In this document: positions 10,661 through 25,903 of the stretch, one piece after another
Layout: every line of letters starts with the position of its first letter
How positions within the stretch are numbered: the first letter of the stretch is position 1
DNA from: an uncultured Eubacteriales bacterium
Lineage (GTDB): Bacteria; Bacillota; Clostridia; Oscillospirales; UBA644
DNA: 64,000 nucleotides
Assembly: GCA_934454405.1 (NCBI GenBank)
Contig: CAKSFN010000004.1
Span: 84,854 to 148,853, forward strand
Direction of reading: 5' to 3'
Notes under the pieces: generated by a model
Seen by the model: only the letters and a program-made list of their open reading frames with translations
Database searches by the model: none
What the model was told of the DNA's origin: nothing
Position numbers and translations under genes: made by a program

Positions 10661-10891
10661 ATGGAAAAACCAAAGAAATTGAGAAAGCTGATAAAAGCGG
10701 CGAAAATGGGAAAGCCCTGCGCCATGTACCGACTTGGTATTTGCTTTGAAACAGGAACTATGACGGAGATAAATATAGATAAAGCCGCACGGTGGATTTC
10801 CGCAGCGGCTGAGACCGGATATGCTCCGGCACTTGAATGGATAAAGGATTACTCTTTTGACGATAACGCTTTGATTCAGGCGGAAAGCTGA
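10661..10891 (+). CDS. Small Sel1-repeat protein (76 aa)
   Basis: AGGAGGG RBS. AAKMGKPCAMYRLGICFETGTMTEINIDKAARWISAAAETGYAPALEWI contains two Sel1-like repeats. Confidence 0.7.
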   Translation: MEKPKKLRKLIKAAKMGKPCAMYRLGICFETGTMTEINIDKAARWISAAAETGYAPALEWIKDYSFDDNALIQAES

Positions 10892-10899
10892 GGGAATAT

Positions 10900-11274
10900 A
10901 TGAACCACCTGCAATACAACAAAATTCTTGACAAAGTAGATCTTTATGAAGGGCTTGAAAAAAACACGCTGACCATACGGCTTGAAGGAAACATATGCGA
11001 GCGCTGCCCGTCCGATATGCACAGATATGATATTCCATTCCCTGTCGAAGCCGATAGTTTTACGGTTGATTTTACTTCCTACGCGCCCAAGCACAGCTAC
11101 GAGCTGATTATAAAAAGCGTTAACGAAAACAGCGTTGATATTACTTTTAGCGGAAATGACTACACCCTGCACGAAGGGATCAACTTCCTTTTTGACATAA
11201 GGGAGCATCAGGCCTCATACGACGGCCCGTGGTTTACGGGCGTGGATGAATTACAGGCTGTATGGGTGAAATAA
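10900..11274 (+). CDS. Hypothetical small protein (124 aa)
   Basis: 8-nt gap after the upstream gene. Positional counterpart of ORF 20475-20768. Confidence 0.55.
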   Translation: MNHLQYNKILDKVDLYEGLEKNTLTIRLEGNICERCPSDMHRYDIPFPVEADSFTVDFTSYAPKHSYELIIKSVNENSVDITFSGNDYTLHEGINFLFDIREHQASYDGPWFTGVDELQAVWVK

Positions 11275-11293
11275 GCGATAATGAGGTGGCGGC

Positions 11294-11887
11294 GTGAACG
11301 GAATCAAGCTGAAAATATCAAAACCAAAGGATAAGCTTTCCGCAGGTTCAAGCAAGCTGTTCGGCAATCCCGATGTGTGGGACGGCTTTGAATGGCCGTA
11401 TATCGAAGAAAACGGCGAAAAGTATGACTTAACCTTTATGTGTCAGATAGACTGTGCAAAGGCAGAAGGCTTTGACGAAAGCGGATTGCTTCCGAAAACT
11501 GGAATACTTTATTTCTTTTACGACCTTGATACAATGCCCGAAGCACCGGACGAAAAATCGGCACGGGTTCTTTGGTACAACGGCGAATTGTCCGCCCTGC
11601 ATGAAATGATACTGACAGATGAGGACGGCAACAGTCTGGCGTTTTCCGAGCAGAGAATCAATTTTGATGTAGCAGATGCGGATGAAAAATCATCTTCTCT
11701 TCTTCTCGGAGATATGACGCAAAGCTGTGATTTTATAAAGGATTATCTGCCGCTTTTGCGTATCGGCTCGCTTGAAACGGAGGATGCGGAGATCCGCTTT
11801 AAGGGTAACGGGGCGCTGTGCTTTTATATTGAAAAAGAAAAACTTGTAGCGTGCAACTTTTCCGAAGTGAAAGCGGCACAGATATAA
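11294..11887 (+). CDS. DUF1963 (YwqG-like) family protein
   Basis: GTG start after GAGGTGG. LPKTGILYFFYD and the C-terminal GNGALCFYIEKEKL...F match the DUF1963 signature as I remember it. Confidence 0.65.
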   Translation: MNGIKLKISKPKDKLSAGSSKLFGNPDVWDGFEWPYIEENGEKYDLTFMCQIDCAKAEGFDESGLLPKTGILYFFYDLDTMPEAPDEKSARVLWYNGELSALHEMILTDEDGNSLAFSEQRINFDVADADEKSSSLLLGDMTQSCDFIKDYLPLLRIGSLETEDAEIRFKGNGALCFYIEKEKLVACNFSEVKAAQI

Positions 11888-11904
11888 CAGGGAGGAACTT
11901 TGCC

Positions 11905-14274
11905 ATGGGACTGTTCAAAAAGAAAACTACCGATTATGACGAGATTTTCACAAAGCTTGCGGCGGGAAACCTGTCCGCGCGGGAGCTTAAGAATGCCGAA
12001 AAGGCATTGGAGGAGCTTGCAGAATCGGGAGATGCGCGCGGTGTCATCTGGCGCCCTCTCATAAACATATATAAGCATAACATCCCTTCGGCAATCAGCA
12101 ACTTTTCGTTTGCGGAGAGGCAATACGGAATTTGCGAGGAATACGTGCGCGTGCGCAGTCTGCCTGTCGTATTCGGACTTTTCAGCTTTCGGTATGACAA
12201 GTATCACGAGCCGGCAAGCGCCGTTTTTACGGCGCGTTCATATGAGTACGGCTGGGGTACGGAGGCTGACCACGCAAGGGCTCTTGAGATCATACGGGAT
12301 GCGGCGGAACGGATACACGAGGGGGCGTTTGTGTCATATGCGCCGACTATCAAAAAAGTATATCTTGAAATTACGGGCGAAGAAATCCCCGAACAAAATG
12401 TTCCGTCGGCAGAAAGCGGCGAGCCTGCCGAAAAGGACGGCGAAATGCAAAACGGCTGCGATGTTCCGCACGACGATGGCGTAAAGCCCGCCGATGACGC
12501 GCGGTGCGCGGAGGACAACGCATCCCCCGCGGAGGCTTCTCCCGCCGCAGCTTCTCCGACCTCCGACCGCACGGAAGCGGCACCGCACGTTGAGAGTGCC
12601 GCGCAGAACAGCAGTATTACCGCAGAATCGCAGGGCAGCGCGGACAGCGCCGATGCTGCGGCAGACGACTTCGAATGGGAGGAGTTTTCCTCGATCGACG
12701 AGCTTCACGAAAAAATTCTCCATCCGGAGCTTTTCCGCGATCCGGAGGATCGCTATATCATAAATTCGTGTATGTATCTTGATACGTTCGTCGATGAATT
12801 CCGCGAGGAATTTGCGGGCGACGACTATGCGGAAACGAAGGAGATAATCGCCGAAATTCTCGGAGTTGAGAGCGGCGAGCTCACGGAGTGCATCGAGCGC
12901 CGACTTGACTTTATACACGGATTTACCGAAAAGGAGTACCTCCTTGCGGCGATGTACAGCCTCGCTTACGACGAAAGAACGGACCTTGCGCCGTATCTTG
13001 CAAATCTCGCCTGCTATTTGTGGACGGATACCGGGGACGGCGACTACTTCGATCCGCTGCTTGATCTGTTTAAGCTGTCCGGCGAATACGACGACGACGA
13101 CAGCACATGGCTCTGCGCCATACTCCGCCTGCGGGAAAACGGCAATATCGACGAGCCGCTGAATCCGAACGGCAACGTCAGCTTCGACTATCAATTCGCA
13201 GATTTCGACTATGTGTTCGGCGATCTTCTCGATAAAGGATACCTGCCCGGCTCGGACGGAAAAATGTATCTGTCCGATATCGGCGATGACAGCGGGGACG
13301 AAGCGGAGGAATCCGATACCGGAGACAACGTGCTGCTGCGTTACCGAAACGGCGATTCCTACCGCGGCGCGGCGGTCGGCGGCGTGCGCGAGGGATTCGG
13401 TGCCTATTTTTTCGCGGATGGCGGGTTCTACCGCGGCTGCTTCCATGCGGACAACTACGAGGGCTACGGCATGCTGGACGAAGGAAACGACAAGGTCTAC
13501 AAGGGGCTTTGGAAGAACGGAAAGCGCTGCGGCTACGGCGTGCAGACCTACGCAAACGGCGAGGTCTACCGCGGATGGTGGAAGGACGACCGATTCCACG
13601 GCTTCGGGCGGTATGAATTTTTGAACGGAGCGGTGGATCTCGGGGAATTTTATAACAATCTGCATGAGGGAATCTTCCTTATCCGCCGGGAAGGTCAATG
13701 GTTCGGGACCCTGTGGCAGAACGACGAGATCGTTCCGGAGCCCACCGGACCTGAGGTGATCGATATCGGCAGCGATTCTCGGTATACGGGAGAGATCGTG
13801 CGGAGGAGAAACGGAAACGTGATCACGCGGGTGAAGCACGGCTACGGAAAATACCGCTTCTCTCACCGTAACGGTGCAGACACGGTGGACGGCTACATCG
13901 GTGAGTTTGAGAACGATGCCCCCTGCGGCTCCGGAATGGTCGTCAATACGGTCGGTGACTCCCCCATGGTGCTGATCAGCTCCGATTTTCGCGGCGAGGC
14001 GCTGCCCGAGGGCGAATGCCGCATGATCTCGCTGACCACGCAAGGCACCACGCAGTACGCGGAATACTATGTCGGCGGATTTCATGATTCAAAATGGCGC
14101 GGCAAGGGCATGCTGTCTCTTATCGGCAATAAGAATGTCTGCGACTTCAACTGGTACGGCGGACTGTCCACGGGCAGCATTATAAGCTGCGACAGCTTTA
14201 ACGACTTCCCCACGGGCGATATTACCGTTGTCGACAAAGACGGCAGACGGACGCAAATGCATCTGAACGGCTGA
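11905..14274 (+). CDS. Large multidomain protein (789 aa): Sel1-like N-terminus, acidic low-complexity linker, unknown central domain, MORN repeats
   Basis: ATG at 11905 after GGGAGGA. MORN repeats include YKGLWKNGKRCGYGVQTYANGEVYRGWWKDDRFHGFGRYEFLNG. A Sel1-like ARSYEYGWGTEADHARALEIIRDAAE lies near the N-terminus. Confidence 0.7.
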   Translation: MGLFKKKTTDYDEIFTKLAAGNLSARELKNAEKALEELAESGDARGVIWRPLINIYKHNIPSAISNFSFAERQYGICEEYVRVRSLPVVFGLFSFRYDKYHEPASAVFTARSYEYGWGTEADHARALEIIRDAAERIHEGAFVSYAPTIKKVYLEITGEEIPEQNVPSAESGEPAEKDGEMQNGCDVPHDDGVKPADDARCAEDNASPAEASPAAASPTSDRTEAAPHVESAAQNSSITAESQGSADSADAAADDFEWEEFSSIDELHEKILHPELFRDPEDRYIINSCMYLDTFVDEFREEFAGDDYAETKEIIAEILGVESGELTECIERRLDFIHGFTEKEYLLAAMYSLAYDERTDLAPYLANLACYLWTDTGDGDYFDPLLDLFKLSGEYDDDDSTWLCAILRLRENGNIDEPLNPNGNVSFDYQFADFDYVFGDLLDKGYLPGSDGKMYLSDIGDDSGDEAEESDTGDNVLLRYRNGDSYRGAAVGGVREGFGAYFFADGGFYRGCFHADNYEGYGMLDEGNDKVYKGLWKNGKRCGYGVQTYANGEVYRGWWKDDRFHGFGRYEFLNGAVDLGEFYNNLHEGIFLIRREGQWFGTLWQNDEIVPEPTGPEVIDIGSDSRYTGEIVRRRNGNVITRVKHGYGKYRFSHRNGADTVDGYIGEFENDAPCGSGMVVNTVGDSPMVLISSDFRGEALPEGECRMISLTTQGTTQYAEYYVGGFHDSKWRGKGMLSLIGNKNVCDFNWYGGLSTGSIISCDSFNDFPTGDITVVDKDGRRTQMHLNG

Positions 14275-14381
14275 TGCCCGGATAGGCGAGATACAGACGA
14301 TTTGTTGACGGGTTACGGAAATCGAACAAGTAATGTAATCTGCACTACTGTCATAAAACTACCGTTAAGGAGAAATAGCCT

Positions 14382-15362
14382 ATGAGTATATGCGACGAAT
14401 TAAAAAATCAAGCGGAGCAAACATACGCCGATGGGATCGACAAATCTATTGAAACGGCGGCGGCGTGCTTTCGGCTTTGCGCAGAAGGGTTGTCCCGATT
14501 TTCCGATGACGGCGGAGGGAGCTACCCGATACAGGATATTTCACTGCTCATTGCCTGCTCGGCGGTGTCGGGCGGCTGGAACAGAGCAGGCTCTGCCGAC
14601 AGGGAGCGTATGTCTGAAAGGCTGAAGCTGTATGTATCAAACATCAACGGGCTGTGCGACGATCTGCCGCTTGCGCTGACCGTTCCCGGATATGCGAATA
14701 TCGGGCGGAATCTCATGTCGCCGCCGCAGATAACGGCGTTTACCGAACATCTGACGCGCCTGTTACAAACGCTTGACGAGCATGAAAAAATGGCGGTCGT
14801 CACGATGCACTATTTGATGCTGTATGCGGTGTTTGAAGAATGGCCGCAGGTGGATGTGCTGAAAGACGCCTATGAAGGCGCCTTAGTTCAGCCGGAGGAA
14901 GCCTACGAGCCGCCTGAGAGCAATACGGCAGGCATTCCGTTCTCGCATACATATGCCGCTCCCGCACAACCGACAGCGGCGGCGATTGCCCGATATGAAC
15001 GCAACGCAAAGCGCCGCTGGCGGCCGCTGAAAATCTATCTTATCGTAACGGGACTGTTTATCGCACTGGTGCTCGGACTGTACTTTTATGCCGCACCTCC
15101 GTTTTCTGAAGGTCAGGAGATTGTGGTAAAGGATATCACCGGACAGTCGGTGAAAATGCTGCCCGATTCTGAGCCTGTGGAGCTTGCCTTGGTGGGGCTG
15201 ACGGATTATAACGGCGTCGTCCGCCTGTTTTACGGAATGATAACAGGCATTGTGGTGTACCGAATAGTGTCAATCCTTGCCGTGTTTATCATAAACTCGC
15301 TCTATCGCAGAAGAAATGCGAAAAAAGCCGCTGCTTTAAGGGCAGGCAATTATATACCGTAA
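14382..15362 (+). CDS. Membrane-anchored hypothetical protein (326 aa): soluble N-domain plus two C-terminal TM helices
   Basis: AAGGAG RBS. TM segments LKIYLIVTGLFIALVLGLYFYA and FYGMITGIVVYRIVSILAVFII. Confidence 0.6.
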   Translation: MSICDELKNQAEQTYADGIDKSIETAAACFRLCAEGLSRFSDDGGGSYPIQDISLLIACSAVSGGWNRAGSADRERMSERLKLYVSNINGLCDDLPLALTVPGYANIGRNLMSPPQITAFTEHLTRLLQTLDEHEKMAVVTMHYLMLYAVFEEWPQVDVLKDAYEGALVQPEEAYEPPESNTAGIPFSHTYAAPAQPTAAAIARYERNAKRRWRPLKIYLIVTGLFIALVLGLYFYAAPPFSEGQEIVVKDITGQSVKMLPDSEPVELALVGLTDYNGVVRLFYGMITGIVVYRIVSILAVFIINSLYRRRNAKKAAALRAGNYIP

Positions 15363-15379
15363 TCAGAAGGAGGATGGAT

Positions 15380-16522
15380 ATGTTCAAAAAAGTCATAACA
15401 CTATTATTCGGCACGGCGTTTATGGTAGTGCTGATGCTTGCAGCAGGCGGCATATATCTGTTGCCCGAAAATGTTATGGGCGTTTATCTGTACGCCGATG
15501 TGTGGAACGCCGTGGGAGGGCTGTTCAGCCTGATGCTGGTTCCCGGCTTTGTGGTGGGCTATGCCGCCTGTCAGAGCCGAATTCTCGGCGCAGTCTGGTT
15601 TATCGGCTTTGTCGTATTGGGATTTATCAGCGGTATCAGCGTTTGGTGGATCGTCACGGCTGTGCTGCTTATCCTCTCCTACCTGTTCTGTATCAGCGAG
15701 AATGTTGGCGATTATGATGACCTCGACACCTACGACAAGCTCTGTGTGCTGATCCCCGCCTTCGGGGCACTGCGGTTTATCGACCGCTTCGGGCTGGAAG
15801 GCTTTTTCGGCGTGATAGGAAAAATTCTTTCTGTTATCGCTATAATACTGAATTTTGCACTGATGATCGCTCTGTGGATTGTGCCAAAGGATGAAGCCTC
15901 GGCGTTTGGCACGGTTATCATGCAGATCAAGACTTTCGGCAGTACCCTGTTCGGCGTCGTCTTTATCTTCGTTTTCCTGCCGCTGTTTTCGGTTTACAGT
16001 GCGAAATATTCCTTTATTAAGCCGGGACTTGCCAAAGTGCTTGCCTGCATTTTCGGCGGCTACGACATTATGCGCGGAGCCTTTGTAACCATGCCGGCTT
16101 TGCTCGGAGGCCTTAATCTGACTATGGACACCTCTATGGAAAGCGCAAGTCCGATATTTAACAATATGTTTGGCATTGAGGCGTGCTTCCTTATGGCGAT
16201 GCTGCTCGGCGGAATCCTTTGTGTTAAGACTGCCTTTGGTAAAAAGCTGGGACTAACTGCACAGTTCTGCCTGACAAAGGACGGCACGGCATCGCTGCGC
16301 TGCCTGATGATGGCGGCACTCTCAACCGTGCTTGTATTCAGCATAGCGCCCGCCGCAATCTTTATTGTGTGGCTCGCCGCTGTTGTCGTACTGATGATTG
16401 CATTCCTCATAGCTTATAAAATGAGACCGCGCTACACTTATAACGATTTAATAACTTTGGGCTACTCGGATTATGAGGCAAGAAAGTTGCTTTCTATAAC
16501 CGGCGGAGAATTTTCTATATAA
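15380..16522 (+). CDS. Polytopic integral membrane protein (~10 TM)
   Basis: ATG at 15380 lies 6 nt after AAGGAGG (an alternative ATG is at 15374). The sequence is hydrophobic throughout. No family recognised. Confidence 0.6.
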   Translation: MFKKVITLLFGTAFMVVLMLAAGGIYLLPENVMGVYLYADVWNAVGGLFSLMLVPGFVVGYAACQSRILGAVWFIGFVVLGFISGISVWWIVTAVLLILSYLFCISENVGDYDDLDTYDKLCVLIPAFGALRFIDRFGLEGFFGVIGKILSVIAIILNFALMIALWIVPKDEASAFGTVIMQIKTFGSTLFGVVFIFVFLPLFSVYSAKYSFIKPGLAKVLACIFGGYDIMRGAFVTMPALLGGLNLTMDTSMESASPIFNNMFGIEACFLMAMLLGGILCVKTAFGKKLGLTAQFCLTKDGTASLRCLMMAALSTVLVFSIAPAAIFIVWLAAVVVLMIAFLIAYKMRPRYTYNDLITLGYSDYEARKLLSITGGEFSI

Positions 16523-16535: not shown

Positions 16536-16817
16536 ATGACAGAACAAAAGAAAAAGCAAATCATTGAGCTTGAAAAAGAGCTTTCCTATCTTGTAAACGG
16601 CACGATGGCGGTCGAGGAAAAGCTGAAAAGTCTCTCGAATGCGCATTGGCAGGCTTATAACTCCGGCTACGGCGACGCTATGGCAAACAAGCTGATGGGC
16701 GGGCAGGAGGATGAACAAACCCGCCTTTGGGAGAAAAACTGCGAGAACAAATACAAAATCGACGCACTCATTGACTTGCTCGGTGAGTTAAAGGAAGAAG
16801 GTGATAGCGGATGTTGA
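16536..16817 (+). CDS. Small coiled-coil protein (93 aa)
   Basis: 13-nt gap after the upstream gene. Charged heptad-like sequence. Confidence 0.5.
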   Translation: MTEQKKKQIIELEKELSYLVNGTMAVEEKLKSLSNAHWQAYNSGYGDAMANKLMGGQEDEQTRLWEKNCENKYKIDALIDLLGELKEEGDSGC

Positions 16818-17251
16818 CCTGCCCTTATTGCGGATCATCCCGTTTACAAACCACCGGCGGAGACATCGGCAATCCCTTTGACCGCAGACAAGAAAAGACA
16901 ATCTGTCTTGACTGCGGCAGAACGGTAGTAACAGAGCCGGATACAGCGGACTTGTTTCAAAGCGTAATCTGCATCGAAATGACTGCTGGGGGCGGCGGAC
17001 TTGTCCGAAAGGCAAAAGCGGAATTTCCGTATCAAGACGGCGAGTATGATTTGAGCCGTCTCGAATACCCGCTTTGCCGATATAAGCGTTTAAAAATCAG
17101 CAAAGATACAGTGGACATAGACAGCGAGATTTATGTAAGCATTACCGATGTGCCGTATGAAACAACAAGACAATATACCGCTTACGCTCCCGATAATCGA
17201 CCGGAGGCGGAAACGGCGAAAATCAAGATTTATTCAAAAGGAGAGATTTAA
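16811..17251 (+). CDS. Zinc-ribbon protein (146 aa)
   Basis: CPYCGSSRL...CLDCGRTV gives two CxxC pairs. Overlaps the upstream gene by 7 nt. Confidence 0.55.
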   Translation: MLTCPYCGSSRLQTTGGDIGNPFDRRQEKTICLDCGRTVVTEPDTADLFQSVICIEMTAGGGGLVRKAKAEFPYQDGEYDLSRLEYPLCRYKRLKISKDTVDIDSEIYVSITDVPYETTRQYTAYAPDNRPEAETAKIKIYSKGEI

Positions 17252-17254: not shown

Positions 17255-18211
17255 ATGGGACGATGTGCAAGGTGTGGAATGCCTATGCCCGGAGATGTAA
17301 TCGGAGCAGTTTGCTTAAACTGTCAACGGCAAATGGCATCTCAACGCAGCGGAAGCAACGAAAACCAAAAAAGACAAGAGGAACAAAGACGCAGACAGGA
17401 AGAATGGAACGCACAACACGGTTTAGAAAGCATAACCACCGACAGCAACGGGAATATCGTTAGTAAATACCGCGACGGAAGAACCACCGTGCATACCCCC
17501 GCTCAGGTCAAACGCAGTTTTTGGCGTACCGTAATCATTCTTATCCTTTTGGCGGCGGGAGTGTTCACGGGGATAAAGTATTATTCCTATTCTAAAAATG
17601 AAAGCAACCTGCTCGCACCGTTTGAAATTACGCAGACGGAATCGGGTGACGGTTCATTTGTCATTAACACCGCCCTTTCGGGAAGCAATACATATAAAAT
17701 CTACGAATTGACCGTTTCTCCAAAGAAAGAGGGCTTTGTATCAAGCGTTTTCGGTTCTTCCTCCGACTTTGCCAAAATGTCATGCTTTACGGTGGACGGC
17801 AAGGCAGCTTATTGCTACTGTTTCAGCGGCTATGATTGCGGTACGGGGCTTGACGGCGAGTTTTATCTCACGGAAGTAAACGGCAAACGGGCACTCATTG
17901 ATAATGATCGCGGCAAGGTCTATATGGAAGGCTCAGAGTTTTTCGGTGAACATATCGCAAAATTGGAGGCGTTTAATCCGGCTGCGGTATTAAAACCTCT
18001 TACCGAAAAGGTATCGGGCGGCGAATACGGTATCAATACGTCCTATTATGTTTTGAAAAAGGACGGAGTATCTTTAAGCTGCTCCAAGGACGGAAACCGC
18101 ATCAACGTCCTTGATGAAAGCGGCGAAGAAAGACTCAACTATAAAGTGCAATACTATGAATCCTCTATGGGCAAATTGCCGGACTATTCGGAATATGAAA
18201 TTGTAGAGTAA
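17255..18211 (+). CDS. Zinc-ribbon / single-TM / extracytoplasmic-domain protein (318 aa)
   Basis: N-terminal CARCGMPM...CLNCQ, a charged QEEQRRRQEEW linker, the TM helix FWRTVIILILLAAGVFTGI, then a ~210-aa outside domain. Confidence 0.6.
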   Translation: MGRCARCGMPMPGDVIGAVCLNCQRQMASQRSGSNENQKRQEEQRRRQEEWNAQHGLESITTDSNGNIVSKYRDGRTTVHTPAQVKRSFWRTVIILILLAAGVFTGIKYYSYSKNESNLLAPFEITQTESGDGSFVINTALSGSNTYKIYELTVSPKKEGFVSSVFGSSSDFAKMSCFTVDGKAAYCYCFSGYDCGTGLDGEFYLTEVNGKRALIDNDRGKVYMEGSEFFGEHIAKLEAFNPAAVLKPLTEKVSGGEYGINTSYYVLKKDGVSLSCSKDGNRINVLDESGEERLNYKVQYYESSMGKLPDYSEYEIVE

Positions 18212-18752: not shown

Positions 18753-18754
18753 AT

Positions 18755-18778
18755 GTCGCTGCTGCGGCGACCAAAATA
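18755..18778 (+). repeat. Conserved stem-loop motif, copy 2: GTCGCT-GCTGC-GGCGAC-CAAAATA
   Basis: Read directly, in the 69-nt gap between ORFs 18237-18752 and 18822-20459. The T6:G12 pair is a G-U wobble on + strand RNA. A TATAAT lies at 18783-18788. Confidence 0.75.
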
Positions 18779-18821
18779 TTCTTATAATACGCTATCATTG
18801 TGTTGTAAAGGAGGCGAGCGC

Positions 18822-20459
18822 ATGAAACCCGAAACGGTGCTTGGAATGAAATGCGGAGAAGAACCAAAGGTAAAATTGCAGGAGTGGCTTAAGGAATATG
18901 CAGCCATTGCGGCGGAGTTTCCGAGTGCAGAAGATTTGGCGGAAAAACTTTCAAAGCGTGCCGAAAAAGCCTGTACGCTTATCCTTGAGCGCAACAATCC
19001 GAAGCCGTTCTCGTCGCTGCACGATGATATGTATTATATTGAGATGGCAAAGATCATGGACGACGAGAACGCATCTCTTGACGGCAAATTTCCACTCGGA
19101 AGTGAACCTGACGCTGAATTTGCAGGCTGTTATTTTTCCGTTTCGGAGCTTGTCGAGATTCAGTGCGGACTGCACCATTTGATCGCCGCCGGGAGCTTTA
19201 ACGGATATAACTTCGATGTGCTGGTACGCAAGGGCTTTCTTGCCGAGCTGAACGGCGACTTTCCCGAAGCGGTGCGCTGCTATGAGGGCGTACCGACAAG
19301 CAAGAGCGTGCAGAAGCGTGAATACGAATGCCGCCGCAAAATGGCGGACGAGGGCACACGGTGCTATGAACAGGCGCAAGAACACATGGAAAGCGGCAAG
19401 TGGAGCGAGGTGTTTTATCCGTTGAACCGTGCCGCCGATATGGGCAATACCGACGCCATGGTGGATCTTGCCCTTGCCCGTGTATACGGCCAGTACGGCT
19501 GCGCAAAGGATTTGCAGGAAGCCCTCACGCTTCTGCGTACAGCGGCGAAGAAGGAAAATGCCCGCGCCTGCTTTGCGCTATGTCATTTACACGACAGCAG
19601 CGTATACGAGGTGGAGGCTCATGAAGCCAAAAAAATGTGCGAAAAGGCAGCAAGGCTCGGAGATGAAAAGGCAAAGATGCGGCTTGCCGATGGCTTTGAC
19701 CTCCGCCCTCTCCGTGAAATTTTGCTCGAGCAGATTGACAAAGGCAATACTGGCGCCCTTTGGCAGATGGCACAGTTTTGCAAAAAGGAAAACGATGAGA
19801 CCGGTGCCGCCGAGTGGTTTAACAAAGCCATCGAAGCCGGGCAGATTGACGCTCTGTTAAGTGCAGCCTCGGTCTATTTGGATAAGAACAGCGGGTTTTA
19901 CAACGAAGGGCTTGCCCGTCAATATCTTCGTCGTGCTGTCGATCAGGGCAGTATACCAGCGATTATAGTTCTCGGTGATTTGGAACTTACAGATACGGAT
20001 ATTCCATTTTGGCAACAAGCGGCACAGCTTCGGGATTTGGAGTTTTCTGATAAAAAGCCCAAAAGGAAGATACGGGAGCAGCACAAAAAGCAGATGGCGT
20101 GGTATTGTCTCGCTGCCGAAGCGGGCGACACCGATGCAATGAATGCGCTTAGTATGGCATATCATCTCGGCTATCCCGAAAAGCGTGACGATGAGCGGGC
20201 GTTTTTGTGGGCTTCCCGCGGAGCCGACGCAGGCGACGGTTCGGCAATGTATCAAACGGCGTATTTATATGAAAACGGCTTTGGAACCGACAGGGATATT
20301 GATGCGGCGCTTATGCTCTATACAGAAGCCGCCGAACAGGGCGTGCGCTCGGCTATGATAAGGCTTTATGAGATATACACCGAAGGTCTTTTACATATTC
20401 GGCCTGACGGTAAAAAAGCGGCGCATTATCTATGGCTTTCGGGCGAAGGACGGGACTAA
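18822..20459 (+). CDS. Sel1-repeat (SLR/TPR-like) protein (545 aa)
   Basis: ATG at 18822 lies 7 nt after AAAGGAGG. Multiple Sel1 repeats, e.g. AAEAGDTDAMNALSMAYHLGYPEKRDDERAFLWASRGADAGDGSAMYQTAYLYENGFGTDRDIDAAL. Confidence 0.8.
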   Translation: MKPETVLGMKCGEEPKVKLQEWLKEYAAIAAEFPSAEDLAEKLSKRAEKACTLILERNNPKPFSSLHDDMYYIEMAKIMDDENASLDGKFPLGSEPDAEFAGCYFSVSELVEIQCGLHHLIAAGSFNGYNFDVLVRKGFLAELNGDFPEAVRCYEGVPTSKSVQKREYECRRKMADEGTRCYEQAQEHMESGKWSEVFYPLNRAADMGNTDAMVDLALARVYGQYGCAKDLQEALTLLRTAAKKENARACFALCHLHDSSVYEVEAHEAKKMCEKAARLGDEKAKMRLADGFDLRPLREILLEQIDKGNTGALWQMAQFCKKENDETGAAEWFNKAIEAGQIDALLSAASVYLDKNSGFYNEGLARQYLRRAVDQGSIPAIIVLGDLELTDTDIPFWQQAAQLRDLEFSDKKPKRKIREQHKKQMAWYCLAAEAGDTDAMNALSMAYHLGYPEKRDDERAFLWASRGADAGDGSAMYQTAYLYENGFGTDRDIDAALMLYTEAAEQGVRSAMIRLYEIYTEGLLHIRPDGKKAAHYLWLSGEGRD

Positions 20460-20474: not shown

Positions 20475-20768
20475 ATGAAACTTAAAATCAAGGAAACGGC
20501 TTGGGGAATCAACCGAGTGGCGGGAGGCTACCGTGAAAGAGTTACCGCCAATTTATGTTTTCCCTGTGAAGTCGGAGAGATCCCCGAGTTCGGAAAAGGC
20601 AGGCGGCATTTTTCCATCGACGAGGTAAGCGAAACATCCGTCAGCCTTTCGGTACACTGCGCCGATCCGAAATATAACAAAACATGGACAATCAACAAGG
20701 GTGAAGAAATAACCTATCGACCGCGCTCTTTTGACGGCGGGTATTTCTATGAATTTAAACTGATTTAG
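20475..20768 (+). CDS. Hypothetical small protein (97 aa)
   Basis: 15-nt gap after the upstream gene. Positional counterpart of ORF 10900-11274, with weak similarity by eye (SV..SV...........G......DG..F). Confidence 0.55.
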   Translation: MKLKIKETAWGINRVAGGYRERVTANLCFPCEVGEIPEFGKGRRHFSIDEVSETSVSLSVHCADPKYNKTWTINKGEEITYRPRSFDGGYFYEFKLI

Positions 20769-20779: not shown

Positions 20780-21325
20780 ATGAATGCGATCGGAATCAAA
20801 ATAAAAAAAGCGGATGGAAATCACGACCCCGGTGCCAGTAAATTTTTCGGTGCGCCGGTACTTCCCGACGGGTGGGCGGAAATGTTTTCCGAGGACATTA
20901 TCTTCTTCGGGCAGATACGGCTTTCGGATATCGCAGAGCTTGACACGGAAAACAAGCTGCCGCATACGGGCTATCTTTATCTTTTCCTCGATGTTGAGAT
21001 GTATCCCTATCAGGCGATGGCGTATTATTATGACGGCGAGCCGAATGTCGTTGTGGATGATTTCAACGAAGCGGAAGTGCAGTTTGCTCATTTGAATGAG
21101 GATTGGCTCATGAGCTTTGAGCCTGCCGATGAAGATTTTGACGGAACCCGCTTGTTCGGTGTTCCGTCCTCCGGCTATGAAACAGACGAGGATCTGCTGC
21201 TGCAATTCGATCCGCTGGCAGAAAGCACTGGCTTTCTCGACAATATCGACGGCTACGCCTATTTCTTCTTCGGCGAGGGCAAGGATCGCATTAACGGTAT
21301 CCGCTTCGACATTGACCGTTCATAA
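20780..21325 (+). CDS. DUF1963 (YwqG-like) family protein, second copy
   Basis: LPHTGYLYLFLD and the C-terminal DGYAYFFFGEGKDRINGIRF match the same signature as ORF 11294-11887. Confidence 0.65.
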   Translation: MNAIGIKIKKADGNHDPGASKFFGAPVLPDGWAEMFSEDIIFFGQIRLSDIAELDTENKLPHTGYLYLFLDVEMYPYQAMAYYYDGEPNVVVDDFNEAEVQFAHLNEDWLMSFEPADEDFDGTRLFGVPSSGYETDEDLLLQFDPLAESTGFLDNIDGYAYFFFGEGKDRINGIRFDIDRS

Positions 21326-21339: not shown

Positions 21340-22635
21340 ATGGAACGGTATTTTGCAAAAGGCAGCAGGATCCCGCTGAAAAACGGGCAGTCGGCAGAGG
21401 TGATTGCAAAACTCGGCGAGGGCGGGCAAGGCACGGTATACCGTGTGCGTATCGGCGGAAAAGAATATGCGCTGAAATGGTATCATAAAGGCACCTTGCA
21501 GAATCCCCGCCGCTTTTATCAGAATCTTGAAAACAATATTCGGCAGGGTGCGCCCTCACCCGCCTTTCTGTGGCCGGAATTTCTGACAAAGGAAAGGGAC
21601 GGCAGCTTTGGCTATGTCATGAAGCTGCGCCCGTCAAATTACAGGGAGTTTTCGGATTTCCTGCTGGCAAAGGTGCATTTTTCCTCTCTGTCGGCGGCGG
21701 CAGGTGCGGCGCTGAATATCACCAACGGCTTTCGGGAGCTGCACCGGAAAGGCTTTTCCTATCAGGATCTGAACGACGGAAACTTCTTTCTTGATCCGAC
21801 GACCGGCGAGGCGCTCATCTGCGACAACGACAATGTGGCGCCCTACGGAGAGAGCCTCGGCATTGCCGGGAAAGCACGGTATATGGCGCCGGAGGTGGTG
21901 CGGAATATCAAGCGTCCGGATATCATGAGCGACCGGTTTTCTCTGGCGGTTGTGCTGTTCCGCCTTTTGTTTCTCGATCACCCGCTGGAGGGGAAGCGTG
22001 TGGTGGAGCACCCCTGCCTGACCGAGGAATTGGAGCTGAAATTTTACGGCAAAGCACCGATTTTTATATATGATAAAACGGACGATTCAAACCGCCCGGT
22101 GCACGGTATACACGCAAATGCCCTGCGCTTTTGGCCGGTGTATCCGAAATTCATTCGTGAGCAGTTCCTAAAAGCATTTTCCAAGGACGCCATGAGCGGA
22201 AAGGCGCTCCGCCCCACCGATAACGATTGGCAGATCGTCTTTACGCAGCTTCGTGACTGCATTGTCAAATGTCCCTGCGGCGGAGAAACATTTCTCGATT
22301 TTGAGGGCGACAGCCTGTGCATAAATTGCGGCCTTAAAATTCCGAAACCGCCTGTGTTATCGTCGCAGAATCGCTATAAGGTTGCCCTGTTCCCCGGAAT
22401 AAAGCTCTACCGCTGTCACACCGACCGGGACAGCGATGATTTTAAGAAAATTGTCGGCGAGGTTATACGCAATCCTAAAAATCCTGCCATATGGGGGCTT
22501 CGCAATCTCAGCGATGAGGCTTGGCAGGCCGAAACCAAGGACGGCAATGTAAAAACAATCGGCAAAAACGAGGTACTGGTCGTAACAAAAGCAAAACAGA
22601 TTCATTTCCCGAACTGTATCGGGACCATCGAATAA
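21340..22635 (+). CDS. Ser/Thr protein kinase with a C-terminal zinc ribbon and FHA-like domain (TerY-P kinase-like)
   Basis: Gly loop GEGGQGTVY, Lys in YALKW, catalytic loop SYQDLNDGNFF, CDNDN (DFG-equivalent) and RYMAPEV. These are followed by CPCGG...CINCG and a beta-rich tail (GLRNLSDEAWQAETKDGNVKTIGKNEVLVV). Confidence 0.8.
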   Translation: MERYFAKGSRIPLKNGQSAEVIAKLGEGGQGTVYRVRIGGKEYALKWYHKGTLQNPRRFYQNLENNIRQGAPSPAFLWPEFLTKERDGSFGYVMKLRPSNYREFSDFLLAKVHFSSLSAAAGAALNITNGFRELHRKGFSYQDLNDGNFFLDPTTGEALICDNDNVAPYGESLGIAGKARYMAPEVVRNIKRPDIMSDRFSLAVVLFRLLFLDHPLEGKRVVEHPCLTEELELKFYGKAPIFIYDKTDDSNRPVHGIHANALRFWPVYPKFIREQFLKAFSKDAMSGKALRPTDNDWQIVFTQLRDCIVKCPCGGETFLDFEGDSLCINCGLKIPKPPVLSSQNRYKVALFPGIKLYRCHTDRDSDDFKKIVGEVIRNPKNPAIWGLRNLSDEAWQAETKDGNVKTIGKNEVLVVTKAKQIHFPNCIGTIE

Positions 22636-22649
22636 GGAGGCTTTTAAAA

Positions 22650-23381
22650 ATGGCAAATATATATGAAGGCGCAGTGGAGGTTTCCCGCAGAACCATGACC
22701 CTTTTCTTTATGGTTGATGCATCCGGCAGTATGGACGGAGCGAAAATGGGGACACTTAACTCTGCAATTGAAGAAGTCATTCCCGAAATCCGCAAAATAT
22801 CCGCCGAAAATGCCGACGCAGCCATAAAAATCGCTGTGCTGGAATTTTCAAGCGGCACAAGATGGATAACCCCCGCTCCGATGGACGCGGAGGACTTCAC
22901 ATGGAGCTTTCTCACTGCCGACGGACTGACCGATTTCGGCGCGGCCTGCAAACAGCTTAACGAAAAGCTGTCCCGCAAGGCATTTATGAGTGATGTAGCA
23001 GGCTCCTTTGCCCCTGCAATATTTCTGCTTTCTGACGGAGAACCGACCGACGAATATGCTTCCGAGCTGTCAAAGCTGAAGGAAAACAACTGGTTCAAAA
23101 AGGCCATTAAGGTTGCGGTGGCCATCGGCGAGGACGCCAATAAAGCCGTACTTGCCGAATTTACAGGCAACAAGGAAGCGGTGCTTACGGTGCATACGCC
23201 CGAGGCTCTCACAAAAATGATACGCTTTGTTTCGGTTACGGCGTCACAGATCGGATCGAAGTCCAGCGGAGTCGGTAAAGGCGGCGTGGACGAAGCCGCA
23301 AACAAGCAGGACGAAATGATCGACAAAATAAACGAGGTCAAGGCCGCCGAGCCGGATGACGACGGTGATCTGGAATGGTAA
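22650..23381 (+). CDS. von Willebrand factor A (vWA) domain protein, TerY-like
   Basis: ATG at 22650 after AAGGAGG. MIDAS motif FFMVDASGSMDG. Length (243 aa) and the LLSDGEPTD motif fit TerY-type vWA proteins. Confidence 0.8.
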   Translation: MANIYEGAVEVSRRTMTLFFMVDASGSMDGAKMGTLNSAIEEVIPEIRKISAENADAAIKIAVLEFSSGTRWITPAPMDAEDFTWSFLTADGLTDFGAACKQLNEKLSRKAFMSDVAGSFAPAIFLLSDGEPTDEYASELSKLKENNWFKKAIKVAVAIGEDANKAVLAEFTGNKEAVLTVHTPEALTKMIRFVSVTASQIGSKSSGVGKGGVDEAANKQDEMIDKINEVKAAEPDDDGDLEW

Positions 23382-24274
23382 CCGATTATCGGGCGTTTGG
23401 TATGACGGTGATCGGCGCTTCCCACATAAAAAGCGGCATGGTTTGTCAGGATTTTTCCTTAAGCTGCGAATTGCCCGACCGCAGAATTTCCGTCGTATGT
23501 GACGGTCACGGAGGAGCCGATTATTTCCGCTCGGACAGGGGCAGCCGCTTTGCCGCGGAAGCCTTTACCGAATGTATGAAGGATCCCGATGTCATAAGTG
23601 TCCTTTCGGCGGCCGCCACCCAAAAACAGCAGTCCGGTCGCATAGAACAGCTCATAAAAAGCATTATTGCCCGCTGGAACGAGCTTGTGGAACGGGACAT
23701 AAAGGAACATTCCTTCGGCGAGGATGAACTAAGCGGCGTATCGGGAAAGGCGCGAAAAAGATACGAAACAGGACAGCGCCTGCAATCGGCATACGGCACG
23801 ACCCTTATCGGCGTTATACTTACCGAGAATTTCTGGCTCGGTTTGCAGATCGGCGACGGAAAATGCGTTGCCGTATCAAAAGACGGCGAATTTACACAGC
23901 CCATTCCGTGGGATGAGCAGTGCTTTTTGAATGTCACCACATCGATATGCGATGAAAATGCCGCCAAGGAGTTCCGCTTTTGTTTTGAACGCACTCTTCC
24001 CGCCGCCGTATTCATCGGCAGCGACGGAATCGACGACTGCTTTGCCGGAGATGAGAGGCTGTATGATTTTTACCGCCTGACCCTCAGGTCTTTTGCCCAA
24101 ACAAACGATCAAACCGCCGTCTCGCAATTAAAAGATTATTTGCCGACCCTTTCGGAAAAAGGCAGCGGAGATGATATGTCGGTTGGGATTATTGTCAATA
24201 CGGATTTTGCACGTCAAAAGCCGGCGGCTTTTGAAAAATCGCAAAAGGCTTCCCAAAACGAGGTGACACCATGA
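23375..24274 (+). CDS. PP2C-family Ser/Thr protein phosphatase
   Basis: ATGGTAA overlap with the vWA stop. Motifs VVCDGHGG, TTLIGVIL and FIGSDGIDD are PP2C metal-binding motifs. Confidence 0.8.
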   Translation: MVTDYRAFGMTVIGASHIKSGMVCQDFSLSCELPDRRISVVCDGHGGADYFRSDRGSRFAAEAFTECMKDPDVISVLSAAATQKQQSGRIEQLIKSIIARWNELVERDIKEHSFGEDELSGVSGKARKRYETGQRLQSAYGTTLIGVILTENFWLGLQIGDGKCVAVSKDGEFTQPIPWDEQCFLNVTTSICDENAAKEFRFCFERTLPAAVFIGSDGIDDCFAGDERLYDFYRLTLRSFAQTNDQTAVSQLKDYLPTLSEKGSGDDMSVGIIVNTDFARQKPAAFEKSQKASQNEVTP

Positions 24275-25224
24275 AGGATAACGGCTCCAGGTTTTATTAT
24301 TCCCGTCTGACAGACGGTGAGAAAAATCTATATGATCGGATATGCGAGGCGCTTCTTCGCTTTGAACCTGCCCTGTCCATCCACGCCGGTATGGGCAAGG
24401 CCTTTACGGTAGATACCAAAAAGATCATGACCGCTGTACTGTTTGACAATCCGGTTTTTTTCTATCTTAATCGACATCGGGTAGTCACCAAGCAGACGCC
24501 GATGTATATTCAACTCATCTTTCAGTATGATTACGCAAAAGAAGAAGCCGAGCAGCTATGGGCAGAGGTAGAAAGGAAAGTAGATCTGTTTATAAAGAAC
24601 AGTATAAAGCCGGATATGAGTCCCCTCGCAAAGCAGCTTAAGGTGCATAATTTTCTGTACACCATTCACACGGCCGAGGAGCCGTTTGACAGCGACTGCT
24701 TTTCGGTAGTCGGTGCATTGCTCCGCGATCGGTGCGTCTGCGAAGGATTCGCCAAGGCATATAAACTGCTGTGCGACAGACTTGGAATCGCCTCAATTGT
24801 GGTTGTAGGAGAGGCTTTACACGAAAACGGGCGGCGGGAGCCTCATTCCTGGAATATCACCCGTATAAAAGGTGTAACCGCCCATACCGATGCAGCCTGG
24901 GACTCCCGTTTCGGCGGAGCGGCTTATGATTATTTTAATCTGTGCGATGCCGACATTGCCGCCGATCACTGCTTTGATACCGAGCTTTATCCGAAATGCG
25001 ATCCCAATAAAATCAACTATTTCTATAAAAACCGACTGATTGCGCGGGACGAGGACGAACTGCGAAAAATAATAGCCGACCGAGCGGACGAGCCTTACTA
25101 CTCGGTCAAGCTGCTGTTTCCGTTTTCAAAAGAGCGCCTTGACGAATTTTCCTTTGGTATAGGTGTGCTTCGCTATAACGCCGCCCAAAATATCATCGGA
25201 TTTATCAAGGCTATGACAGAATAG
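24271..25224 (+). CDS. Transglutaminase-like cysteine protease superfamily protein
   Basis: ATGA overlap with the upstream gene. Cys in RCVCEGFAKAYKLLC, His in EPHSWNI and Asp in HTDAAWD give a C-H-D triad in canonical order and spacing. Confidence 0.75.
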   Translation: MKDNGSRFYYSRLTDGEKNLYDRICEALLRFEPALSIHAGMGKAFTVDTKKIMTAVLFDNPVFFYLNRHRVVTKQTPMYIQLIFQYDYAKEEAEQLWAEVERKVDLFIKNSIKPDMSPLAKQLKVHNFLYTIHTAEEPFDSDCFSVVGALLRDRCVCEGFAKAYKLLCDRLGIASIVVVGEALHENGRREPHSWNITRIKGVTAHTDAAWDSRFGGAAYDYFNLCDADIAADHCFDTELYPKCDPNKINYFYKNRLIARDEDELRKIIADRADEPYYSVKLLFPFSKERLDEFSFGIGVLRYNAAQNIIGFIKAMTE

Positions 25225-25246
25225 ACCTATAAACGGGAGGTATACT

Positions 25247-25903
25247 ATGCCCATTTCCCAAGAGGAATTAAACAGAATCGTAAAGCTTCACGGCATTATT
25301 GAAGGCCATAAGGAGCACAGCCACGCAGCGCCCACCTATAAAGACAGTCCTTATCTTGCCGAAATGGCGCAAATTGCGCTTGCTCCCCGTGATCACGATA
25401 TAGAAACGCTGGAAGAGATCATTCCGACGCTTTGGTATCTTACCGAATGTTATGACAAAATGTGCCGTGCGGGAATGTCGGTGAAATTTTACACACCGCA
25501 GCTTCAAGCTCATACAGAGCTTATGAAACTCAGAGAATATGACAGTGAGGACATGGAAGGGTTTGAAAACTGTTTTTATCTGGCGGTCAAAGCAAGAAAT
25601 TATTATGAACCTGACGATTGCCCTGACCTTGTCGCAATCGTGTCCGGCAGTCTGCCGGATGAAAGAATCCGTGAATTGCTTCTCTCGGCGCAGGAAAACC
25701 GACGGGGATTCATCAAAAACGATCCTGTTGAGAAAACGGAGAAATACCTTGCGGTGATTGACAAGGTGGAGGAAAAGATAGAAAAAACCAAACAGATGGA
25801 TTTCTGTCTGGAATACTGGAGTTTAAAAGCTCGGTTCTTGTTTGAATACGGCATCCTCTGGCGCTCCCCGACCCAGCTCAACCCCGGTGTAATGTTTGAT
25901 TAA
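25247..25903 (+). CDS. Hypothetical protein (218 aa), last gene of the cargo operon
   Basis: GGGAGG RBS. Followed by a terminator 18 nt downstream. No family recognised. Confidence 0.55.
   Translation: MPISQEELNRIVKLHGIIEGHKEHSHAAPTYKDSPYLAEMAQIALAPRDHDIETLEEIIPTLWYLTECYDKMCRAGMSVKFYTPQLQAHTELMKLREYDSEDMEGFENCFYLAVKARNYYEPDDCPDLVAIVSGSLPDERIRELLLSAQENRRGFIKNDPVEKTEKYLAVIDKVEEKIEKTKQMDFCLEYWSLKARFLFEYGILWRSPTQLNPGVMFD

Follow-up and report, generated by a model that had tools for sequence, protein, structure and literature searches.

TerY-P triads are widespread, and one version of them defends against phage. By definition such a triad comprises a TerY-like vWA protein, a PP2C phosphatase and a Ser/Thr kinase (STK) fused to a zinc ribbon (Anantharaman et al., 2012, as summarised in PMC11090510), and it has a habit of joining other conflict systems (PMC11090510, PMC4978471). 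A metal-sensing phospho-switch has been hypothesised (quoted in PMC11090510), and PMC11090510 presents the anti-phage TerY-P version of Gao et al. (2020) as a three-gene vWA/phosphatase/kinase cassette with an OB fold at the C-terminus of the kinase. The TYPP (DUF1963, YwqG-like) domains are bacterial relatives of PDCD2/Tsr4, dedicated chaperones of the ribosomal protein uS5 (PMC4275035, PMC7736825), and have been proposed to act in bacteria as chaperone or protein-interaction modules, with several copies per operon (PMC4275035). Here, we describe a locus in which such a triad stands together with TYPP genes: an array of 18 consecutive open reading frames (ORFs) on the + strand (g01-g18, positions 10661-25903) carried by an integrative conjugative element (ICE) in a 64,000-nucleotide (nt) stretch of DNA, hereafter the window, from an uncultured Eubacteriales bacterium of the Oscillospirales (assembly GCA_934454405.1, contig CAKSFN010000004.1, positions 84,854 to 148,853).

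Judged from its sequence, the array is neither random cargo nor an indivisible 18-gene machine. It appears to be built of two modules. Module B (g14-g17) combines a genuine TerY-P phospho-switch with a transglutaminase-fold enzyme, while module A (g01-g13 and g18) is headed by HTH_26, F14 and ribbon-helix-helix (RHH)-like regulators, appears to be restricted to Clostridia, and has a syntenic core of g01, g03, g08, g11, g12, g13 and g18. The triad looks like a regulatory part that can be added or left out, which is also how it behaves in the other systems that it joins. We regard the array as modular, and not as an obligate 18-gene unit, because module A is found intact without the triad and because several positions vary. 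The reading we favour, at a probability of roughly 45%, is that an Oscillospirales ICE carries the array as its cargo, in the form of a modular supra-operon that acts as a phospho-gated, membrane-linked system. The initial annotation of this DNA had proposed one functional unit much larger than the triad; a conserved unit of ~11 families stands, and an obligate unit of all 18 genes does not.

The likeness to described systems is closest for g14-g16, which encode, as in the TerY-P triad (Anantharaman, Iyer and Aravind, 2012, via PMC11090510 and PMC4978471), an STK with a C-terminal zinc ribbon, a TerY-like vWA protein and a PP2C phosphatase. Their orthologues occur in TerD/Ter-biosynthesis clusters and beside FtsK/WXG-type modules, and the triad is often present in its host cluster yet can be dispensed with, as in CoCoNuT systems (PMC11090510) and others. 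Unlike in the described cases, the partners here are Sel1, TYPP, MORN, zinc-ribbon and membrane proteins, which are not among the associations that we found described; the window lacks TerD, TerY_C and nuclease genes, a transglutaminase-like fourth gene is consistently attached, and the order is kinase-vWA-PP2C. The cassette of Gao et al. (2020), which can act as a stand-alone defence module, shares the vWA/phosphatase/kinase composition. Membership in that defence family is unsupported, because the vWA and PP2C proteins have no PADLOC match and because g14 ends in a zinc ribbon and a beta domain of no assigned fold, where the defence version is described as having an OB fold in place of the zinc ribbon. 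Polyimmunity or acquired interbacterial defence loci (Zhang et al., 2012, PMC3482391) resemble the array in their packed, co-oriented, toxin-less genes, their variation between strains (seen here for some of the genes), their recombinases and their paralogues. Unlike them, the array holds no recognised immunity family, is deeply conserved in order and content, and has membrane proteins, regulators and a signalling triad embedded in it. Finally, bacterial TYPP/YwqG operons (Burroughs and Aravind, 2014, PMC4275035) also show several YwqG-type genes in one operon and fusions or links to peptide-binding repeats, but linkage to TerY-P, Sel1, MORN or an ICE is not reported there. In the window, each TYPP gene is preceded by a small gene of no assigned family (g02-g03, g12-g13).

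The triad was thus already known. A limited literature search yielded no account that links it with a transglutaminase-like protein or with a Sel1/TYPP/MORN/membrane module (nothing relevant was found on TerY with transglutaminase or Sel1), and the initial annotation had known of no description of the 18-gene arrangement. In this cluster, the triad is joined by interaction and membrane proteins that form a defined and conserved set, although some of their positions evolve fast. The cluster is common in Oscillospirales of the human gut, where ICEs as well as chromosomes, among them that of the cultivable Ruminococcus champanellensis, carry it. It offers candidate substrates and effectors for the phospho-switch and a first way to approach the bacterial TYPP (PDCD2/Tsr4-like) proteins through genomics.

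The TerY-P triad and its neighbours

Module B consists of four genes:

21340..22635, + strand: g14, Ser/Thr kinase with a C4 zinc ribbon and a conserved all-beta C-terminal domain of ~95 amino acids (aa) (Pkinase, E=1.8e-14)
22650..23381, + strand: g15, TerY-like vWA protein with a metal ion-dependent adhesion site (MIDAS) (VWA, E=1.6e-6, 28.9 bits against a cutoff of 23.8; DASGS, a DxSxS motif)
23375..24274, + strand: g16, PP2C phosphatase (PP2C_2, E=1.1e-34; DGHGG and GSDG motifs)
24271..25224, + strand: g17, transglutaminase-fold Cys-His-Asp protein (C157, H192 and D207 invariant)

The kinase, vWA and PP2C genes are co-directional and adjacent, with gaps of 14 nt and -7 nt. In an alignment of 17 homologues, the G-loop GEGGQG and residues K46, D143, N148 and D162 of g14 were invariant; g14 is predicted to be a catalytically competent Hanks-type kinase. 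The zinc-ribbon residues C311, C313, C327 and C330 were also invariant in the homologue alignment, and this segment was kept in 19 of 19 clade representatives. When the AlphaFold2 (AF2) model of g14 was searched with Foldseek, only kinases were returned (probability 1.00). The pLDDT exceeded 90 over residues 300-431; Foldseek aligned the kinase part only, and a profile of the C-terminal beta domain had no match in PDB or Pfam. The vWA gene g15 is the most conserved gene of the array (96-99% identity among close loci); its product is still 57-70% identical to the vWA proteins of most of the more distant triads and 60-67% identical to those from clusters with TerD genes.

When genomes were scanned at species level with the kinase as anchor, 80 loci were returned, whose kinases are 90-53% identical to g14, and in most of them the vWA and PP2C genes follow the kinase gene. 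In a Lachnospiraceae-type clade (kinase 54-58% identical to g14), the triad lies within textbook Ter clusters, in the order P-type ATPase, two to four TerD, kinase, vWA, PP2C, LRR_5 protein, TerY_C zinc protein and g17 homologue; the 3' part holds ATPgrasp_Ter, AIM24, HAD, C-C_Bond_Lyase and PRTase_2 genes or, instead of these, an FtsK-like ATPase and a Gln_amidase toxin. In other clades, the triad is found near TerD/Ter biosynthesis genes, near FtsK and a toxin, or near WG-repeat proteins. The identification of g14-g16 as a genuine TerY-P triad, first made in the initial annotation, is well supported, since the sequence motifs match the published definition and the kinase relatives at 54-58% identity lie in canonical Ter clusters. 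Pfam searches found no TerD, TerC, TerB, TerY_C or Ter-metabolite biosynthesis gene among the 18 proteins and the flanking genes. With PADLOC models, the vWA and PP2C proteins were unmatched at E<=0.01, and the kinase matched only the mad6 and PD-T4-6 kinase models.

The fourth gene, g17, had also been called transglutaminase-like, and this call is borne out by remote similarity. Although the Pfam transglutaminase core was matched only weakly and below threshold, and an NCBIfam transglutaminase-related model fell below its cutoff (E=3e-17), a profile of g17 homologues matched PDB 9crn_A, a solved transglutaminase-like protein, with E=6.5e-26; no papers mentioning PDB 9CRN were found in the literature search. 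In addition, none of C157, H192 and D207 varies among the 19 homologues aligned, which represent both clades and include proteins of canonical Ter clusters. A g17 gene was present in 25 of 81 sources (the 80 kinase-anchored loci and the window), and g17 is best seen, on this comparative evidence, as a frequent fourth partner of the triad.

The commonest direct partner of the triad looks to be another protein. A ~105-aa helical domain, here called ND, with a motif of roughly L.DLAP....KERR.I..A.E.GAV, occurs in a protein adjoining the zinc-ribbon kinase triad in 58 of the 81 sources. It is usually N-terminal, sometimes follows a zinc ribbon, and is fused to LRR_5, WG_beta_rep, Sel1, MORN or multi-transmembrane (multi-TM) regions; Pfam models left it uncovered in the proteins that were scanned. 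Triad-adjacent examples (L numbers denote compared loci) are:

L063, 7822-9324
L084, 4813-6357
L094, 7792-9021
L018, 396-1106
L052, 9164-9964

Clusters of the L094, L091 and L131 types contain ND (as ORF family F18), whereas a hidden Markov model (HMM) of ND, run with filters off against the six-frame translation of the window and against window-type loci, gave no match. This distribution suggests that the window lineage lost or replaced its ND partner. The same HMM search left unsupported the idea that ND might be hidden in g05 or g10.

A second triad was seen beside some window-type clusters. In a common gut species represented by contigs of up to 393 kb (L097 and L098, 1-4071 and 15509-19377), a distant TerY-P triad precedes the cluster. 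Its genes are LRR_5, 166-aa protein, kinase, vWA, PP2C and TerY_C, and its kinase is only 35% identical to g14; two triads thus flank one accessory module.

The accessory module and its variable positions

The remaining genes of the array, with the regulators before them and the terminator after them, are as follows:

9486..9728, + strand: HTH_26 regulator, Cro/C1-type, 80 aa (Pfam HTH_26, E=5e-23)
9725..10210, + strand: F14 protein, 161 aa, weakly helix-turn-helix-like (Pfam only HTH_19, E=0.035)
10249..10437, - strand: divergent RHH-like gene, 62 aa (Arc E=0.015 and RHH_1 E=0.18, both sub-threshold)
10243-10220, - strand: the RHH-like gene's own terminator (terminator scan)
10661..10891, + strand: g01, first gene of the array, Sel1-repeat protein, 76 aa (Pfam Sel1, E=3.8e-7)
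10900..11274, + strand: g02, 124 aa, no family (no Pfam match)
11294..11887, + strand: g03, TYPP/DUF1963 (YwqG-like) protein (PF09234, E=1.3e-19)
11905..14274, + strand: g04, MORN-repeat protein, 789 aa, cytoplasmic (MORN, E=2.9e-11)
14382..15362, + strand: g05, soluble N-terminal domain and 2 TM helices (hydropathy scan; no Pfam match)
15374..16522, + strand: g06, polytopic membrane protein, at least 8 TM helices (hydropathy scan)
16536..16817, + strand: g07, 93 aa, helical, coiled-coil-like (no Pfam match)
16811..17251, + strand: g08, N-terminal C4 zinc ribbon (CPYCG...CLDCG; Zn_Ribbon_TF E=0.002, sub-threshold) and beta-rich C-terminal part
17255..18211, + strand: g09, zinc ribbon, 1 TM helix and a C-terminal domain of ~210 aa (sequence and hydropathy scan)
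18237..18752, + strand: g10, 171 aa, no family (no Pfam match)
18822..20459, + strand: g11, Sel1-repeat protein, 545 aa (Sel1, E=7.5e-23)
20475..20768, + strand: g12, 97 aa, no family (no Pfam match)
20780..21325, + strand: g13, second TYPP/DUF1963 protein (PF09234, E=1.7e-4, 22.5 bits against a 23-bit cutoff)
25247..25903, + strand: g18, 218 aa, all-alpha, TPR-like at best (AF2 pLDDT 93.6)
25920-25949, + strand: intrinsic terminator closing the array (11-bp stem, 7 GC pairs, T-run)

Start codons were picked by Shine-Dalgarno/ribosome-binding site (RBS) context and match the gene calls of identical public contigs; an upstream TTG start for g01 (10550) was rejected, as public gene calls and RBS favour 10661. 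The intergenic distances from g01 to g18 are, in order, 8, 19, 17, 107, 11, 13, -7, 3, 25, 69, 15, 11, 14, 14, -7, -4 and 22 nt, which agrees exactly with the spacing given in the initial annotation, and the single strong terminator that it had placed after the array was found again. A consensus scan detected no + strand terminator of like strength inside the array, and promoter-like sites were not enriched (17 seen against 21 +/- 4.7 in shuffles). Given this spacing and the single strong terminator with none comparable inside, one transcript from g01 to g18 is plausible. The two longest spacers lie directly after g04 (107 nt, 14275-14381) and directly after g10 (69 nt, 18753-18821), and both could contain internal promoters.

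The cluster appears to begin upstream of g01. The HTH_26 gene has copies 84-98% identical immediately 5' of F14 and g01 in L097 and L127. F14, an ORF family that adjoins g01 or the RHH-like gene in eight kinase-anchored loci, is 55-96% identical in L094, L097, L118 and L129. The RHH-like gene is found 68-97% identical in the same divergent place before g01 in L091, L094, L118, L127, L129 and L133; as a gene it was confirmed, though its assignment to the RHH family is weak. As these three genes travel with the cluster in other genomes, its left boundary is better placed at ~9486.

Module A is built almost wholly of cytoplasmic protein-protein-interaction parts: Sel1 proteins, the tetratricopeptide repeat (TPR)-like g18, a MORN protein, two small-protein/TYPP pairs and zinc ribbons, together with membrane proteins. 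The domain content listed in the initial annotation was largely upheld. The hydropathy scan of all 18 proteins found two TM helices in g05, at least eight in g06 (~10 had been estimated), one in g09 and none elsewhere, and no signal-peptide-like N-terminus; array proteins other than g05, g06 and g09 are predicted to be cytoplasmic because they have neither a hydrophobic segment nor a signal peptide. The C-terminal ~210 aa of g09, the membrane-anchored one of the two zinc-ribbon proteins (the other is g08), are probably extracytoplasmic. Of the two DUF1963/YwqG-like proteins, g03 was matched clearly and g13 just under the cutoff, but g13 is a paralogue of g03 by BLAST (E=5e-11). Sel1 repeats were confirmed in g01 and g11 and MORN repeats in g04, whereas Sel1 in g04 and g10 was not confirmed at Pfam thresholds and is only Sel1-like by eye. 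In further searches, NCBIfam gave nothing above cutoff on g10-g18, and PADLOC on the 18 proteins and F14 gave only generic kinase models and a trivial Sel1-type match of g01 to the PtuA N-terminus. The AF2 model of g18 had no PDB match below E=0.1 by Foldseek, with only weak TPR-like similarity. Judged by eye, g02 and g12 are probably small beta proteins.

About 130 related loci were compared with the window array by tblastn of the 18 proteins against the 80 kinase-anchored loci, 40 g11-anchored metagenome loci and g06-anchored loci. Near kinases at least 70% identical to g14, ~11 families recur (F14, the RHH-like gene, g01, g03, g08, g11, g12, g13, g17, g18 and the triad), and they are largely collinear across several Oscillospirales lineages. 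Module A families accompany the kinase only in this clade; outside it, the triad has no array partners except g17. The genes g02, g04-g07, g09 and g10 are found only in the window's lineage or in the triad-less L095 type, or are variable. The first layer of conservation comprises 31 window-type loci with kinases at least 85% identical to g14, which are always collinear (identities of 96-99% for g15, 82-96% for g13 and 88-98% for g14); L127 lacks g02-g10 altogether. In the second layer, with kinases 70-77% identical (L016-L032, L091-L094, L128, L129, L133 and L134), a smaller set recurs, consisting of F14, the RHH-like gene, g01, g08, g03, g11, g12, g13, the triad, g17 and g18. The order in the fullest of these loci (L094, L027/L028 and L091 types) is largely that of the window, some genes are relocated (g18, for example, lies upstream), and lineage-specific extras occur, namely F18 (ND domain and multi-TM region) and F19 (zinc-ribbon protein). 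The cluster of R. champanellensis, which belongs to this second layer, is chromosomal and not on an ICE. Dockerin-bearing genes flank it on one side and a Mur ligase gene on the other, and the kinase protein that it encodes appears in 345 blocks of a public assembly collection. The L094 cluster adjoins an ABC transporter and a two-component system.

Module A also occurs on its own. In L095 and L096, the genes g01-g02-g04-g06-g07-(MORN/RCC1)-g08-g11-g12-g13-g18 are collinear with the window at 52-75% identity, and the kinase, vWA, PP2C and g17 genes are missing; g18 begins 22 nt past g13. Likewise, L130-L132 and L135 retain module A, F18 and g17 but have no kinase, vWA or PP2C. Every cluster type has a multi-TM protein, which is g05/g06 in the window type and F18 elsewhere, and on this count the earlier idea of a membrane-linked system survives; F18 proteins had no BLAST match to g05 or g06. 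Conservation of gene order, proposed in the initial annotation as a check, therefore gave a divided answer: the core is collinear, and the partial and shuffled combinations that would speak against a single unit are found as well.

Taken gene by gene, g01 is kept at 47-91% identity in all cluster types, triad-less L095 included, and full-length homologues of g11 are 38-87% identical in all cluster types, with or without the triad; g11 appears to be a core member of module A. The g12-g13 pair is conserved, with g12 directly preceding the TYPP gene g13, which is itself conserved in all cluster types; g02, which precedes and pairs with the TYPP gene g03, is found only in window-type loci and L095. 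Homologues of g08 are 28-40% identical in L023-, L027-, L091- and L131-type clusters, and g05 is restricted to window-type loci. Only 143 homologues of g06 were found among 5.8 billion proteins, and the best 120 of these 143 are all at least 71% identical. g18 has 245 homologues in total, without a Pfam domain among the 120 matches listed; the source names given are all Clostridia, Oscillospiraceae or Acutalibacteraceae, and the g18 family appears restricted to Clostridia. Furthermore, fusions tie together families that are separate neighbours in the window. A MORN+DUF1963 fusion in L094 (2904-4382) contains the g03 homologue within one 492-aa protein, and a single 297-aa ORF in L131 (8376-9269) covers both the g12 and the g13 matches. 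ORF family F28, which sits between PP2C and g17 in L027-L029, has MORN repeats behind an N-terminal segment that, judged by eye, resembles g07.

Two hypervariable positions depart from this conservation. g04 and g10 lie between genes that are 85-99% identical in close relatives (85-97% for the genes flanking g04). Yet g04 is only 43-65% identical in the eight window-type loci where at least 40% of it matches, and the other window-type loci show shorter fragments at 26-31% or no match. The window g04 is matched best by that of the distant, triad-less L095 (65% over 738 aa), to which it is closer than to the g04 of L012, a locus with flanks ~90% identical to the window. For g10, identity to the window falls into classes of ~40%, 76% and 95% in 27 close loci. 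These two genes also mark the extremes of third-codon-position GC content (GC3) across the array, from 0.44 (g10, lowest) to 0.67 (g04, highest). g04 and g10 look like exchangeable allelic cassettes, and the spacers that trail them are consistent with recombination junctions for cassette exchange. In addition, g06 is absent or partial in ~8 of 15 array-spanning close loci, though present in triad-less L095, and g09 is absent from several close relatives.

The L095 locus holds a further gene group divergent to its accessory cluster (33-6348, - strand), which encodes a 1151-aa protein combining a trypsin domain with two AAA domains, as well as three proteins of 450-567 aa without assigned family. 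This region may be another conflict module.

Possible functions of the array

By analogy, the array most likely serves as a phospho-gated, membrane-linked conflict system. We read it as part of a biological conflict because of its hypervariable slots, its carriage by a mobile element and the known company of TerY-P. In the mechanism we propose, the repeat and TYPP proteins would build a membrane-associated complex that forms a scaffold or sensor layer, and the variable members g04 and g10 would be rapidly exchanged specificity elements for a changing target (phages, other mobile elements or toxins, for example). The phosphorylation state of this complex would be set by the vWA/kinase/PP2C triad and would in turn gate an effector, which may be the transglutaminase-like g17, the polytopic membrane proteins, or both. 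A more specific form of the proposal is possible but doubtful: module A would be an unrecognised multi-subunit conflict system of gut Oscillospirales, in which TYPP domains chaperone small partners into a membrane sensor complex and TerY-P with g17 is a plug-in phospho-gate. If true, bacterial TYPP/YwqG proteins would for the first time be given a functional context, and TerY-P would be seen to control effectors of a new class.

Several observations weigh against the favoured reading. A defence role for the array is argued by analogy, given that no PADLOC model matched the vWA or PP2C proteins and only generic kinase models matched g14. No nuclease, NTPase or pore-forming effector is recognisable, and beyond the kinase, PP2C and g17 no enzyme, toxin or nuclease domain could be recognised in the array. 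Triad-less and accessory-less versions exist, so that coupling between the triad and module A is not obligatory. The window-type cluster lacks ND, although a protein with this domain adjoins the triad in 58 of 81 sources, and the single transcript from g01 to g18 is deduced from spacing. The conflict or immunity system suggested in the initial annotation accordingly remains a suggestion, no PADLOC, NCBIfam or Pfam immunity or defence model having been matched.

The main rival holds that module A is a heterogeneous polyimmunity array, that is, an acquired interbacterial defence array against contact-dependent or T7SS/LXG-type toxins (T7SS, type VII secretion system), with the triad as a separate neighbour or at most a regulator. 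We consider it unlikely, although the array shares with the loci described in PMC3482391 a common orientation, very short spacers, the lack of a toxin gene inside and adjacent recombinases. Gene number and type differ between close strains for g04, g06, g09 and g10, whereas the remaining array genes keep order and content down to 35-50% identity. Paralogous duplicates are present (two TYPP genes, several Sel1 genes and two small proteins without family), module A is able to stand alone, and the triad of Lachnospiraceae relatives lies beside an FtsK/EssC-like ATPase and a Gln_amidase papain-fold toxin. However, no Pfam Imm (Imm1-74), SUKH, SuFu, Imm-Ank or other immunity family was matched by the 18 proteins at E<=0.01, or at E<=1 by those without assigned family. 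The order and family content are kept across 35-75% aa identity, as is typical of a multi-subunit system. Polytopic membrane proteins, proteins of 545-789 aa and dedicated regulators are also at odds with such an array. Furthermore, TYPP is not named as an immunity family in PMC3482391: the word 'YwqG' is missing from its main text, and the paper was not among the results when full texts were searched for 'DUF1963'. If the locus were an immunity array, or an ordinary stress module, its value would be smaller but still descriptive.

The location of the cluster raises the second alternative. On its 5' side lie genes for a TrbL-like protein, a sortase, a VirB4-like ATPase, NlpC/P60 proteins and a HipA_C/DUF6788 protein (partly outside the window), followed toward the cluster by a MobL relaxase, a DUF3991-Toprim protein, a VirD4-type coupling protein (T4CP), and HTH_36 and HTH_26 proteins. 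On its 3' side are sigma70_r4, PemK and SHOCT genes, three serine recombinases and TnpV. With type IV secretion system (T4SS), relaxase and coupling protein genes upstream and recombinases downstream, the cluster is confirmed as cargo of an ICE, as the initial annotation had held. It might therefore serve the conjugative element, in anti-defence or establishment, entry exclusion or transfer regulation, possibly in the recipient. The cluster is directly 3' of the relaxase, primase and T4CP genes and co-oriented with them, the relaxase itself has C-terminal Sel1 repeats, and the same ICE-borne arrangement is found on many human-gut contigs, with identical or near-identical copies in many human-gut metagenomes. 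Copies also occur in metagenome-assembled genomes labelled Acutalibacteraceae, Ruminococcaceae and Ruminococcus. We give this explanation little credence, because homologous clusters stand in chromosomal, non-conjugative contexts (R. champanellensis, L094 and L095), and the Sel1 similarity of the relaxase to g01 and g11 is generic (26-37% identity).

Equally improbable, in our view, is that no functional unit exists beyond the triad and the rest is unrelated cargo in a permissive, co-oriented ICE slot. The heterogeneous GC3, the seven lineage-specific or variable genes, and the partial and shuffled combinations are what such a slot would produce. Against it, at least six diverged cluster types, some of them chromosomal, share the same ~11 families with little change of order, neighbouring families are fused, and every member with examined context of the tiny g06 (143) and g18 (245) families lies in such a cluster; the sample already suggests co-occurrence and conserved adjacency of g01, g11, g12, g13 and g18.

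Finally, a Ter-type chemical or metal stress module, in which the triad senses metal via the vWA MIDAS and reprogrammes envelope-associated proteins, agrees with the hypothesis quoted in PMC11090510 and with triad relatives inside classical TerD/Ter biosynthetic clusters with a P-type cation ATPase, but is quite unlikely for a cluster that lacks TerD, TerC, TerB, TerY_C and Ter-metabolite biosynthesis genes and whose hypervariable g04 and g10 fit an arms race better than abiotic stress.

Other features of the element and the window

The relaxase gene of the ICE encodes Sel1 repeats in its 3' part:

3824-6034, + strand: MobL relaxase, C-terminal ~300 aa of Sel1 repeats (Sel1, E=4.8e-42)

This region was considered as a specific relative of g01, g11, g04 and g10, and was rejected, as the similarity is that of repeats in general. 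Two further gene groups of the element are probably addiction or persistence modules. One is a HipA_C/DUF6788-like kinase gene near the T4SS genes (74-1303, + strand), and the other, between the cluster and the recombinases, is a PemK/MazF-type toxin gene followed by a small SHOCT-like ORF (27136-27793, + strand).

Directly past the ICE end, a second integrated island was observed at ~33000-41700, with a GC content of 0.36-0.41. It carries a PstI-type restriction-modification system (Eco57I/N6 methylase and BsuBI/PstI-type endonuclease, 33509-35907), a weak DUF5677 protein, an ORC/Cdc6-like AAA protein (36696-38294), an S24 LexA-like repressor (39122-39733) and a further serine recombinase (40066-41688). 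The chromosomal arginine-biosynthesis operon begins at ~42 kb of the window. Beside the island, an argC-like ORF (42204-43136) matched the NAD-binding Pfam profile only from position 58, which suggests an insertion at or in argC. Farther downstream, a 1341-aa ORF (48538-52563, + strand) encodes a complete carbamoyl-phosphate synthase large chain with an MGS domain and, at its C-terminus, two DAP_epimerase domains (residues ~1219-1332). Either carB and dapF are fused here, which would be unusual, or the ORF reflects a read-through.

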